In this document: positions 21,262-56,740 of the stretch, piece by piece
Position numbering within the stretch: position 1 is the first letter of the stretch
Layout of the letters: the number at the start of each line of letters is the position of its first letter
NCBI GenBank assembly: GCA_951406725.2
Contig: OX597835.1
Location: forward strand, 34,348,001 to 34,412,000
Origin: Octopus vulgaris
Taxonomy: Eukaryota
Length of the DNA: 64,000 bases
Reading direction: 5' to 3'
Made by a program: the position numbers and the translations under genes
The notes under the pieces: model-generated
Told to the model about the DNA's origin: nothing
Database searches by the model: none
Seen by the model: the letters and a program-made list of their open reading frames with translations, nothing else

Positions 21262-21504
21262 TAAATATTAGGGAATGAATCCAAAATTACAGGGAAAAAT
21301 CAGATTTAGGGTTAAATCCAATTTTATAGTAAAATATTATATAATATAATTCGAGACAAAACCACTATTTTAAAACCAAACAAGGAAAGACTTAATCAAT
21401 ACATAAAATTTTAATATAATTTATTAAATTATATTAAAATTTTATGTATTGATTAAGTCTTTCCTTGTTTGGTTTTAAAATAGTGGTTTTGTCTCGAATT
21501 ATAT
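21262..21504 (-). repeat. Perfect palindrome (80-bp arms, 21344-21504) with ~80-bp unique tail, in (TA)n
   Basis: Arms reverse-complement about position 21424. Confidence 0.9.
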
Positions 21505-21649
21505 ATATATATATATATATATATATATATATATATATATATATATATATATATATATGTACACGCGCACATACTCACACACTCACACACAAACAAACAC
21601 GCACATGCACACATACATACATACATACATACATATATATATATATATT

Positions 21650-21863
21650 CAAAATGTGACCGCGTGTGTACCGCTGGCGATTTTTTTTCCTTCATCTTCC
21701 CTTCTCTGGATCTTTCCTTTTCCTATGTTTCTGACGAAGAGCTCCGCTCGAAACATTAAACCCTCCTCCTTCCCTTCCTTCCTGAGCGTCCAACAATACT
21801 ATATTTGTTCCACGTCTTAGTGTTGTTGTGTTTTCTCTTTGTGTTTTCATGTTTGGATTAACT
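21650..21863 (+). mobile_element. Short TA-embedded element with PLE-type hammerhead-like motif (21727-21761); relatives at 10045-10128 (+, partial) and 41218-41428 (-)
   Basis: GTTT-CTGACGA-A-GAGC-tcc-GCTC-GAAAC-ATT-AAAC; shared 3' end gtttggattaac; the 41315-41349 copy reads GAAACGTC. Confidence 0.7.
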
Positions 21864-52262: not shown

Positions 52263-53416
52263 TATTATGGTTCGGCTGGTGCAGTATTTCTTGACCCACT
52301 TTGTTGGGAGTGGCGCCTGCAAGTCTGGAATAAAAAGCTACAGCCCTTTGTTTACTGGAAGAGTAATGGCTTTTGGAGGGACCTTTGGCCTTGTGCCGGT
52401 CGATTAGGGGTCAGAGAGATGTGAGGGCCGAAGAAGATAGAGTAAGGAAGAATCTAGTGACAGTGAAGAAGAGGAAGAAGAAAGTAGTGAGAAAGACAGA
52501 GTAAGGGATCTGAGAGCTGTCATGAGAGAATGACAGTGACAGCGTCGATATAGATAGGCAGATAGGGCTGAGAGCAGATAGAGAGGATATTAGCAGTGCA
52601 GAGACAGATTGAGGGTAGTGATAGAGGACAGTCGGTATTCGGTCGTCAAAGCGAGCAGTCGGGTTTTTGGGAGTCAGGGCGAGCGGTTGGAATTTAAGCA
52701 GTCGGCGGTCTTGGAGTATTGGGACAGAGAGGGATATATACAGAGGAATAGGCGGCGATGGAGATGAGGTACAATATGAGGCGTTGGCTAATGTAAGATA
52801 CGTGAATTGTGTATCGATATGTGAAGAAAAAGAAGGACAAGGAATTGATGTATTGAACAGTGAAAAGAAATGAGACAGTGAAAAGAACAATGTGAATTGT
52901 GTAAAGACATTGTGTACAGTGTTGTGATTTGAACATTGTATAATGAACATTGAACTGTTAGGCCTGTAATGTCCTTTGAACTGTATATGACTTGTTGATG
53001 TGTTTTGAAATAGAACTGTGTCTTCGGACGTGTACTCTTGAAATGCTGATGTATTGAACTTGATGTGTTGTATACCTGTATTGATTTGTTGTTTCCTTTA
53101 AATGCTTTGATCTGTGGTATACCTGTATAATGTATTGAGTTGTTACGTGCATGTCCTCTTTTAAATGTACCTGATATGTATTTGATGTTGTAACAATTGA
53201 TTGTCATATAAGCTAGTTGTTAAATGTAAGCCAGTTGTGCCTTGCCTCTTTGTGTTTCTCTCGGTTGCCTCTGTATCTCTCTGTGCTGCTGCTGCTGTTG
53301 TTGTTGTGTCTATCTCTCCTCCCCGACAAGTTCCCGTAGCTTATTCGCTGCATCGAACGGGCCTGGATGTGAGGGATTCCGTAACAGTTCGAATCGGAGG
53401 TCCCCCCCTCGTAACA
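52263..53416. mobile_element. Solo-LTR-like element, diverged inverted homolog of 20034-21193
   Basis: Left end tattatggtt..gtgcagtatttcttgaccca matches the reverse complement of 21160-21193; ends CGTAACA; shared internal gacgtgtactcttgaa and ttgcctctttg. Confidence 0.68.
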
Positions 53417-54908
53417 ATATGTATGTATATGTGTGTGCGTATTGTATATGGTGCCCAAACATGGCTGCAGTCTAATGACTGAAACAGGAAGGAATAAAAG
53501 AATATATAAACACACAGCTAGATGTGTCTGTGTGTGTGTGTGAGAGAGAGAGAGAGAGGGGGGAGAGAGCACATATAGTATACATGCACCCATGCACACA
53601 CACGCATAGAAAGAAATACAGAGAGGTGGGGAGGAAAGGTAGGGACCATATGTAGGTTATCTTGTGTTTTTAATGTGAGAATTGAAAAAAATATAGCAGC
53701 GAACGAAGAAATACGTAACCGGCTAAATATGTAATCTAATCTAACATCTTATTGTGCCTAATGGACGAACATTAATTCCATTAAACACTGTAGGGGCTAA
53801 CAAACTCTCTTAGACTCTTGTATCAGGAGTTTCTGTAAAGCCTTTTAATCTTTGACAGCAAAATAATTTGGGGGTTAAAACCCCTAAGAGCATATTGACA
53901 TGATAAGCAAAGGGCTTCTATCTGCTTCGTTATGAGCACGCCAACATGGCCTCCAGTTGTGGAAACCTGCATTGATATTCATTTTTGTTTGTTTGTTTGT
54001 TTTTTGGGGTTTTTTTTGTTTTTTGTTTTTGTAGGTGTTTTTGTTGATTTCAAAAATGGCGTAGAAAACAAAAAAAAAGGAGGAAAATTATTTTCAGGGA
54101 AGATTAAATTTATATCGTCAAAATTATTGAACTCCTTCTACATTGCAATGTGTTTGCGTGTGTGTGTGTGTGTGTGTGCATACGAGTGTGTGTGCACGCA
54201 TGCGTATTTATATGTGTGTGTGTATTTATATTGTGTATGTGTTTTCGTAAGCATGCAGTTTCCAATAAATATACACGCACACGCACGTACATACATACAT
54301 ACATACATACATACACACACACACACACACACACATACAACTTATGCCGTCAGTCTTTCCTCGTTTGTGCGTTATCAGTGCGAGTGTGTGTGTGTGTGTA
54401 TGTATGTGTGTCTCTTTTTCTTGTCTTTTTTTCTTTGCCCCCCACCTAGGACTCATAATTCAAGTTACCCGGTTTCCGCGGCGCATACGTGACCACGGTC
54501 ACATTCTCCCTAATACATACATACAAGCATGGCTGTGTGGTCCCAACCACGTGATCCCGGGTTCAGTCCCACAGCGTGGCACCTTGGGCAATTGTCGGGC
54601 CGACCAAATGCCTTGTGAGTGGATTTCGTAGGCGGAAACTGAAAGAAGCCCGTCGTATATACATATGTATATATCTATCTGCGTTTCCCCCCTTCCTCCG
54701 CCGCCATCGCTTGACAACCGATACTGGTGTTTATGTTCCCCTAACTTAGCGGTTCCGCAAAAAGTGACCGATAGAATAAGTACTATGCTTGCAAATAATA
54801 AGTCCTGGGGTCAATTTCTTCGACTAACACCCTTTAAAGCAGTGCTCCAACATGGCCGCAGTCAAATGATTGAAACAAGTAAAAGAATAAAAGAATACAC
54901 CCCCCCAC

Positions 54909-56740
54909 ATATATATATATATATATATATATATATATATATATATATATATATATATATATATATATATATATATATATATATATATATATATGTGTGT
55001 GTGTGTGTGTGTATATGTATATATATGTGTGTGTGTGTATATGTATATATATGTGTGTGTGTGTGTGTGTATATGTATATATATGTGTGTGTGTATATAT
55101 ATATATATATATGTGTGTGTGTGTGTATATGTGTATATATATGTGTGTGTGTGTGTGTGTATATATATATATATATATGTGTGTGTGTATATATGTATAT
55201 ATATATATATATATATATATATGTGTGTGTGTGTATATATGTATTATATTATATATATATATATATATGTATATATATATGTATATATATATTATATATA
55301 TGTATATATATATATATATATATATATATATATATATATATATATATATATATATATATATATATATATATATATATATATATATATATATATATATATA
55401 TATATATATATATATATATATATATATATATATATATATATATATATATATATATATATATATATATATATATATATATATATATATATATATATATATA
55501 TATATATATATACGACCTCGAACACACAAGTGCAAACAAGGGAGTCAGAGAAAGGCAGAATGCCACTTATATATGAACACTACTATAGAAATATTCCTTT
55601 AAAAAAACTTTTCTTCTAATTTTTCTAAATTTAATTATTTAATCGTTACAGTTGAAAAGGTCTCAAAATGACCGAAACCGGTACTGAAATGTTCACTATA
55701 AAATTATTTTAGCATTTTCTATTTGACTTGTTTTTTCATATATATATATATATATATATATATATATATATACATTTATCTATATATATATATACATATA
55801 TGTATATATATACACATATGTATATATATACATTTATGTATATATATATACATATATGTATATATATACATATATGTATATATATATATATATATATATA
55901 TATATATATATATATATATATATATATATATATATATATATATATATATATATATGTATATATATGTATATGTATATATATATGTATATATATATGTATA
56001 TATATATATGTATATATATATATATATATATATATATATATATATATATATATATATATATATATATATATATATATATATATATATATATATATATATA
56101 TATATATATATATATATATATATATATATATATATATATATATATATATATGTATATATATATATATATATATACATATACATATATATACATATATACA
56201 TATACATATATATATATGTATATGTATATATATATATGTATATGTATATATATATATGTATATATATATATATATATATATGTATATGTATTATATATAT
56301 GTATATATATATATATTATATATATATATATATGTATGTATATATATATATATATATGTATATATATATATATATATATATATATATATATATATATATA
56401 TATATATATATATATATATATATATATATATATATATATATATATATATATATATATATATATATATATGTATATATGTGTATATATGTGTATATATGTA
56501 TATATATATATATATATATATATATATATATATATATATATATATATATATATATATATATATATATATATATATATATATATATATATATATATATATA
56601 TGTATATATATATATATATATATATATATATATATATATATATATATATATATATATATATATATATATATATATATATATATATATATATATATATATA
56701 TATATATATATATATATATATATATATATATATATATGTA
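54909..56740. repeat. Very long (TA)n/(TG)n tracts enclosing a 225-bp unique insert (55512-55737)
   Basis: Direct inspection. Confidence 0.92.
55649..55686 (+). ncRNA. Degenerate minimal hammerhead motif
   Basis: CAG-TTGAAAA-GGTC-tcaaaat-GACC-GAAAC-CG-GTA-CTG; palindromic ACCGGT; core has two substitutions from CTGANGA. Confidence 0.55.

Follow-up and report, generated by a model that had tools for sequence, protein, structure and literature searches.

What fills the (TA)n tracts of the octopus genome with short fold-back inserts, and which enzyme placed them there? The question is raised by a stretch of Octopus vulgaris DNA of 64,000 nucleotides (GenBank assembly GCA_951406725.2, contig OX597835.1, positions 34,348,001 to 34,412,000, forward strand; in its entirety ‘the window’, with coordinates counted from its first letter), where a first-pass annotation had noticed at least seven short, sequence-unrelated, non-coding inserts in or beside microsatellites and had proposed that they are ribozyme-bearing units mobilised by Penelope-like elements (PLEs), either extreme truncations or independently propagating units resembling retrozymes. 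With a probability that we place at roughly 0.8, the swarm consists of PLE traces in TA microsatellites, five being 3′ ends of coding PLEs and two being retrozymes copied by a PLE; the seven inserts are thus not one class. They are lettered A to G and lie in the window as follows, clade and retrozyme labels being assignments made from sequence features.

21262..21504, minus strand: A, stub comprising the 3′ 164 bp of the pseudo-long terminal repeat (pLTR) of a Hydra-type PLE and an inverted tail-less arm; tail at 21262-21350, hammerhead cut off in this copy
21650..21863, plus strand: B copy 1, solo pLTR of ~215 bp, Neptune-type PLE; hammerhead core at 21731, damaged stem III
25610..25692, plus strand: C copy 1, tail-less piece of a Hydra-type PLE pLTR from its hammerhead end, intact core at 25625
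28779..29051, minus strand: D, stub from a Hydra-type PLE pLTR with tail and fold-back, truncated before the hammerhead
31703..32085, plus strand: E, half of a 483-bp tandem hammerhead unit (retrozyme) lacking an open reading frame (ORF); inverted tail-less arm at 31714-31838, tail of ~125 bp, hammerhead just cut off
41119-41177: second tail piece of D
41218..41428, minus strand: B copy 2, U4C core
45957..46140, plus strand: C copy 2, inverted arm with damaged hammerhead, short sense arm, tail of ~70 bp
51837..52243, minus strand: F, almost full 360-bp retrozyme unit (52187-51837) and 59-bp inverted arm, ending at both fixed start sites (224 and 268 in unit coordinates)
55512..55737, plus strand: G, stub from the 3′ end of a Neptune-type PLE, tail-less; core at 55652-55658, U3-A8 variant

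Copy number and microsatellite setting

All seven inserts are present at these positions, and their mutual unrelatedness holds. Comparison of the window with itself by BLAST recovers inverted repeats of the sort that had been described at one end of five inserts, as fold-backs in A (21351-21497, 99% identity), D (28925-29054, 84%), E (31714-31963, 98%) and F (52154-52242, 87%), and pairs the two copies of B at 76% and those of C at 86% identity; the arms of C copy 2, of ~30 bp, lie under the cut-off of that search and are readable in the sequence. E ends in poly-T, and D adjoins (GT)n at one end.

Copies were sought in the genome (2.8 Gb, 227 contigs), and statements on family copies concern the best 30-40 of hundreds to thousands of candidates in each search. 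First-look candidates, which are not copy numbers, amounted to 3001 and 527 for B, 835 for A, 1349 for E, 95 for C, 1857 for D, 1207 for F and 1134 for G, an initial value of 8 for G being a word-filter artefact. The inserts are not single-copy, and their bias towards (TA)n is evident at 162/176 sampled 3′ ends of A, B, C, D, E and G, against 90/1095 random control positions in the flanks. Copies with a (TA)4 run beyond the 3′ or tail end make up 30/30 of A, 28/30 of B, 30/30 of C, 26/30 of D, 23/30 of E and 25/26 of G; several E copies lacking it run on into the next unit.

Unrelated PLE stubs have also been found stacked within shared (TA)n tracts (loci L073, L095, L153 and L356). Such stacking would account for the local swarm and for many very long (TA)n runs.

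Coding parents of five families

The window itself contains a coding relative, for which the first-pass annotation had described the same layout as in the inserts; inverted arm, tail and hammerhead core have all been located.

5415..9934, minus strand: Hydra-clade PLE, 5′-truncated, with CxCx5C linker, CxxC and CxH motifs; inverted 457-bp arm at 9477-9933; 797-aa remnant of the reverse transcriptase-endonuclease (RT-EN) ORF at 7114-9507; 3′ untranslated region (UTR); pLTR with hammerhead core at 5648-5642 and 119-bp tail at 5415-5533

Its fold-back (5534-5989 against 9477-9933) is 99.8% identical, and the 797-aa frame combines RT-like and GIY-YIG-like parts with the three motifs, which characterise the (TA)n-inserting Hydra clade (PMC8557442; here and below, published systems are cited from the available portions of each source). 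The Hydra label is assigned from these motifs; Pfam does not recognise the protein (P0001), and its closest named homolog is from Argonauta. With 17 copies 100% identical over a 160-aa C-terminal query, and open frames of up to 984 aa, the family is young. Among 30 copies anchored on the tail, 25 are shorter than 600 bp, 29 adjoin (TA)n and 16 carry an inverted arm that ends at one fixed site, 114 bases from the 3′ end; a coding PLE therefore yields miniature fold-backs by itself.

Coding parents have likewise been found for A, C, D and G. Family A is reached in L287-L289, L289 having the arrangement A-ORF-A with a CxCx5C linker, and in longer copies the coding part is reached upstream through a GT..AG intron of 1272-1316 nt within the pLTR (L287, L266, L257 and L260 against L078). 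Spliced (14), unspliced (7) and undecidably short (9) copies make up the 30 sampled, and the coexistence of the first two indicates an RNA intermediate. The exon 5′ of this intron contains a palindrome (L077:760-918) that resembles an RFX X-box. C is linked to its parent in L290 (C-ORF-C), assigned to Hydra through a full-length match to the profile of P0001 homologs; D has an EN domain upstream in 4/30 long copies (L298, L300, L302, L311), with CxCx5C in L311; and G flanks both sides of a 784-aa ORF with RVT_1 and GIY-YIG domains (L438). A, C and D are accordingly labelled Hydra-type by sequence, and B and G, provisionally, Neptune-type from the Cx4CxxC linker that both carry. The 5′ ends are spread in A and D, and in C they pile up near the hammerhead, in part an effect of the query. 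As independent elements, A, C, D and G are thus not upheld, extending as they do into coding PLEs, and they appear to be ordinary truncations.

Family B occupies an intermediate position. A coding parent exists (L152, with a decayed Neptune-type ORF ~1.6 kb upstream), yet in 22/27 aligned copies the start lies within 199-216 bases of the end (query, the last 84 bases), 1/30 reaches into the 3′ UTR, and short copies mostly combine a canonical core with a particular allele close to the 5′ end, the short-type allele occurring in one of 30 long copies and the short-type core in one other. No distinct tail was seen in B. It is likely that B is a non-autonomous solo-pLTR subfamily with its own alleles and a near-fixed 5′ end; an unsampled long master copy is a possible alternative. 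The U4C core prevails in coding-linked B (L344-L373, canonical core in 1/30) and is frequent in D; CpG decay could turn one of these two cores into the other.

E and F thus lack an ORF, and A, B, C, D and G are parts of coding PLEs; the choice that had been left between truncations and independent units falls differently by family, with A, C, D and G on the side of truncation, B as a subfamily and E and F independent.

Insertion ends shared by coding and non-coding families

The ends of the insertions carry the argument that a PLE moved E and F as well. Of the head-to-head loci in families A, C, D, E and G, 78/79 pair an arm that has the tail with an arm that lacks it (C 21/21, A 18/18, D 17/17, G 3/3, E 19/20). 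Purified Poseidon PAc from Anolis extends both target strands, with reverse transcription beginning at two internal sites, between which the tail lies (PMC11167929); the simplest reading of the octopus loci is one such start site for each cut end. In F, 30 loci reduce to 16 distinct insertions composed of the unit alone; all 16 have an outer end at unit position 219-224 or 264-268, and 10/12 substantial inverted arms use one of each start site. Since E and F follow the same tail rule as the coding families, a PLE is the likely mobiliser of these also, and PLE-type mobilisation, (TA)n targeting and ribozyme content find support in all seven families.

Inner junctions of F are scattered over the unit, both arms may be multi-unit, and arms cross the predicted ribozyme cut site, including those of the C14 insertion, which consists of one inverted unit and ~10.9 direct units. 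Ends lying off the predicted cut site, combined with arms that cross it, point to an uncleaved multimer or a circle as template.

E and F as probable retrozyme units

The 40 best matches of F are 100% identical over 161 bases, many of them spaced 360 bases apart, and E forms a 483-bp cycle with a canonical core 5′ of the window fragment, the whole cycle being spanned at 8/30 loci. The longest sense frames are 90 (F) and 53 (E) codons, with 138 codons antisense in E; predicted circular folds of the units are 64-65% paired (z −6.2 for F and −5.1 for E, 40 shuffles). Sister families at 71-83% identity are also cyclic, and among their 60 loci two weak PLE matches were found, both unlinked. P0001, the sole protein query used on the E and F loci, had no match there. 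Contigs of 390 and 391 nt (the F unit plus 30-31) in runs X3 and X1, guessed to be RNA, close the cycle, as is equally expected from tandem DNA or multimers, and for F and E such contigs cannot show level, ends or circularity. The proposal of independent retrozyme-like units is borne out for E and F, which lack an ORF, are cyclic and return into the unit after the tail; by these features they fit non-LTR retrozymes, a known kind and not a new class.

Hammerhead motifs

Hammerheads with palindromic stem III had been ascribed to four families. They are readable in the window in B, C, F, G and the 4.5-kb PLE, and the count was too low, all seven families having one: in A, D and E the copy within the window stops short of the family hammerhead. 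Others are damaged or variant, with a broken stem III in B copy 1, two core changes in C copy 2 and U4C in B copy 2 and F. A relaxed descriptor retrieved C copy 1 (exact core) and F (one core change) and missed B, G and the PLE, against a background of exact-core matches in 1/30 shuffles and of matches with at most one mismatch in 8/30; a stricter first descriptor gave 0 matches in the window. The hammerheads of B, G and the PLE are thus read from the letters and from conservation within the family, and core statements for A, C, D, E and G refer to individual sequences, not per-family counts. No hammerhead stood among the 150 of 569 Rfam matches listed, which were dominated by microRNA matches driven by microsatellites.

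52000..52082, minus strand: F hammerhead with long stem I, core at 52048-52042, fold z −5.6; U4C, U-U at the base of stem II, palindromic stem III, predicted cut after 52015

Covariation, the test that had been suggested for the stems, is seen among F relatives: across 14 F-type hammerheads, 94% of stem cells are paired and 6/14 pairs show double changes, against at most 51% and 1 pair in slid controls, the shuffle control ignoring relatedness; stem III stays palindromic or nearly so through differing sequences. The U4C of F is constant in contigs of the runs covering F, and position 7 is variable. A more diverged hammerhead unit with a central F-type motif has been noted in L462 and L176, preceded in L462 by the LINE described below.

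A candidate promoter and a guest LINE

An APE-RT long interspersed nuclear element (LINE), with APE-RT-zf domains in Pfam, is followed by an F-type unit at 27/30 copies of its 3′ end (L384, L396, L153, L434-L436, L439-L468), and target duplications of 14-18 bp are legible at 4/6 loci with both junctions. A search for the LINE junction in young F gave 0 matches, with one exact pattern only, and is weak.

52130..52134, minus strand: candidate promoter motif of five bases, 59 nt upstream of the predicted F start at 52075

In F, F2 and F3 the motif precedes the corresponding site by 58-59 bases, and in 13/15 U2 loci, one of them mismatched, it lies 57-61 bases upstream, the other two U2 loci carrying a LINE 3′ UTR of the L384 type; U6 upstream regions have no F-like motif. 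It is suggestive of a small nuclear RNA (snRNA)-type promoter element. If this were true, a unit would need the end of the preceding unit as its promoter, tandems would be favoured, and F as it stands in the window would be capable of transcription. The partner of F is predicted to be a (TA)n-targeting PLE, probably of the Hydra clade. A fuller picture, offered tentatively and which we hold to be somewhat improbable as a whole, would make F a spreading three-layer parasite, transcribed from an snRNA-type promoter of its own, recognised through its structure, in the absence of common sequence, by a Hydra-clade PLE that copies it at both sides of a (TA)n cut with one start site per strand, and belonging to a group whose relatives are colonised at the transcription start by a LINE that uses U2 genes as well, young F having possibly escaped.

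Alternative explanations

Among the alternatives, the most serious, though unlikely, is that E and F are stubs of unsampled coding PLEs, their solo pLTRs having later multiplied in tandem through unequal crossing-over, a route suggested for Xenopus retrozymes. Five of the seven families do have coding parents, the searches favour close copies, a local-amplification model has been advanced for vertebrates (bioRxiv 10.64898/2026.07.22.740005), and the units of the C14 array differ block-wise; against this, multi-unit inversion arms start anywhere while outer ends keep to two start sites, a pattern found across many chromosomes in copies 98-100% identical, the sequence past the tail re-enters the unit without an ORF, and the older sister families are likewise cyclic. 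The opposite extreme, in which all seven would be independently propagating non-coding ribozyme elements, draws on the shortness of most sampled copies, the near-fixed 5′ end of B and the query-biased clustering of C starts near the hammerhead; it is very improbable, being refuted for A, D and G and largely for C by coding parents (found for B as well), by the spread 5′ ends of A and D and by a window PLE that makes stubs of the same kind. That the neighbouring APE-RT (Tx1-type) LINE moved the F-type units would explain their presence after 27/30 of its 3′ ends, yet it lies inside the unit with its own target duplications at four loci, making the LINE a guest, the outer unit ends remain PLE-type in (TA)n, and no LINE junction with young F was found by the one exact pattern; we give this account almost no weight. 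Tc1/mariner miniature inverted-repeat transposable elements (MITEs) also combine inverted repeats with TA flanks, and miniature DNA transposons were considered for the fold-backs; they were rejected, with hardly any residual probability, on arm lengths that vary by copy, an unpaired tail at one end in place of fixed terminal inverted repeats at both, spliced A copies and parents encoding RT and GIY-YIG.

Several observations weigh against PLE-copied retrozymes, or against parts of that interpretation. The tail rule is broken by two F inversions (L215 and the ambiguous L208) and by one E inversion. E, F and F2 lack similarity to the 37 coding loci and the window PLE, and no partner PLE was found among these; as the best 30-40 copies were taken per search, a rare coding parent of E or F could escape. 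Variation at 4 columns separates units of the C14 array, and this block-wise pattern disfavours a single circle read many times, indicating a multimeric template or later DNA exchange. Of the runs listed as containing F, none is on record as RNA. The promoter motif is only five bases long, the three units sharing it are related, and none was seen in E or B; relatedness bears on the stem statistics too, as stated above. U4C is reported to lower hammerhead activity considerably in vitro (PMC3088659) and may weaken the predicted self-cleavage of F, and 8/9 Xenopus retrozyme dimers stayed uncleaved in vitro (bioRxiv 10.64898/2026.07.22.740005).

Proposed mechanism

In the PLE interpretation that we prefer, a PLE protein would cut both strands within (TA)n, and reverse transcription, primed by each cut end, would begin at one or the other of two fixed positions inside the RNA, the interval between them becoming the tail; the pattern is that of the genomic copies, and the mechanism is modelled on Poseidon PAc (PMC11167929). 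The two cDNAs would be joined head to head, giving the fold-back with one tailed and one tail-less arm observed at the loci, and synthesis would mostly halt within a few hundred bases, leaving stubs such as A, C, D and G. B would likely stem from a short-transcript subfamily with a fixed 5′ end. For E and F, the lack of an ORF, a sequence closing on itself and arrays of up to ~11 units are all seen in the genome. F-type units are predicted to be transcribed from an snRNA-type promoter in the preceding unit and to self-cleave as dimers, and multimeric or circular RNAs to serve as templates for a (TA)n-targeting PLE, probably of the Hydra clade. In relatives of F, not in F itself, an APE-RT LINE is seen inserted at the predicted start site.

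Relation to known systems

Five inserts have the known anatomy of PLEs and two fit the known kind of non-LTR retrozymes; the new element is that retrozymes bear insertion ends of PLE type, and that the retrozyme as well as the PLE side is represented by young families in this genome. The five resemble the EN+ PLEs of the Hydra and Neptune clades with a C-terminal EN (Craig et al. 2021, PMC8557442) in 5′ truncation, hammerhead pLTR, inverted 5′ copy, tail at one end and (TA)n insertion, with A, D and the window PLE fitting Hydra by the CxCx5C linker, C by its profile match, and B and G having Cx4CxxC. They differ from that description in tails of 70-125 bp against 30-40 bp, in the 1.3-kb intron of the A pLTR and in a majority of stubs under 600 bp. 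MRC1 and further non-autonomous Chlamys PLEs are comparable in being non-coding, pLTR-forming and multicopy head to tail (PMC8557442); Chlamys elements have no canonical hammerhead, and their 3′ ends are common to them and to autonomous partners, whereas no partner was found for E and F. Poseidon PAc likewise cuts and extends both strands in AT-rich DNA, with two internal RT starts bounding the tail, and its hammerhead cleavage is dispensable in vitro; in contrast to the one site per arm seen here, this coding element showed no start-site difference between strands (Frangieh et al. 2024, PMC11167929).

E and F match metazoan non-LTR retrozymes in being ORF-less tandem units with a type I hammerhead and a highly paired predicted circle, the U-U at the base of stem II in F recurring in one axolotl family (Cervera and de la Pena 2020, PMC7229834). 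E is slightly longer (483 bp) than the published 150-450 bp, F has a fixed U4C core, both are known here from DNA sequence with the circle being predicted, and insertion into (TA)n, inversions joined head to head and a pair of fixed start sites are unreported in the available portions of that work, where LINEs or PLEs are considered as mobilisers and PLEs are named strong candidates (PMC7229834). Vertebrate retrozymes have likewise been interpreted as non-autonomous PLE partners (Li, Clavereau and Pollet 2026, bioRxiv 10.64898/2026.07.22.740005), from co-occurrence and pLTR homology, with local amplification favoured; the present argument uses insertion ends, with no pLTR homology found at the coding loci compared. 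The main text of that preprint, as far as available, does not contain ‘tail’, ‘target site’, ‘octopus’ or ‘mollus’. The guest LINE recalls Tx1L in Tx1D, Keno in U2 and Tx1-Mar, with a fixed site in a repeat or U2 (Kojima 2015, PMC4494074), and differs in targeting a hammerhead retrozyme; neither ‘hammerhead’ nor ‘Penelope’ occurs in the available portions of that source, and the Tx1 label of the LINE is provisional. No title or abstract opening on PLE-type retrozyme ends or a retrozyme-targeting LINE was found in the literature search, which left most subscription papers and supplements outside.

Retrozyme ends that follow the PLE tail rule amount to a direct enzyme footprint. This genome contains both a young retrozyme, whose copies are identical, and a Hydra PLE that is young and intact, which makes the relationship testable by the published in vitro assay, and the rule of one site per arm limits the possible routes to PLE inversions. 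Annotators should enter most such fold-back inserts in (TA)n as PLE ends, not as MITEs, short interspersed elements or simple repeats.

Other features of the window

Comparison of the window with itself also adds a B fragment absent from the first-pass list, and several further repeats are present.

10044..10127, plus strand: 3′ fragment of family B
14581-15939, 26840-27690 and 56740-58190: three further RT fragments (RVT_1), the second within (ATGT)n
37636-38219: 107-bp tandem repeat, whose unit recurs as an array in inverted orientation ~4 kb off at 42426-42708
38248-38535: MITE-like element with 64-bp terminal inverted repeats (95%)
42140-42215: a pair of short 3′ pieces from a further family with TA flanks, which also occurs beside L023 and in L100

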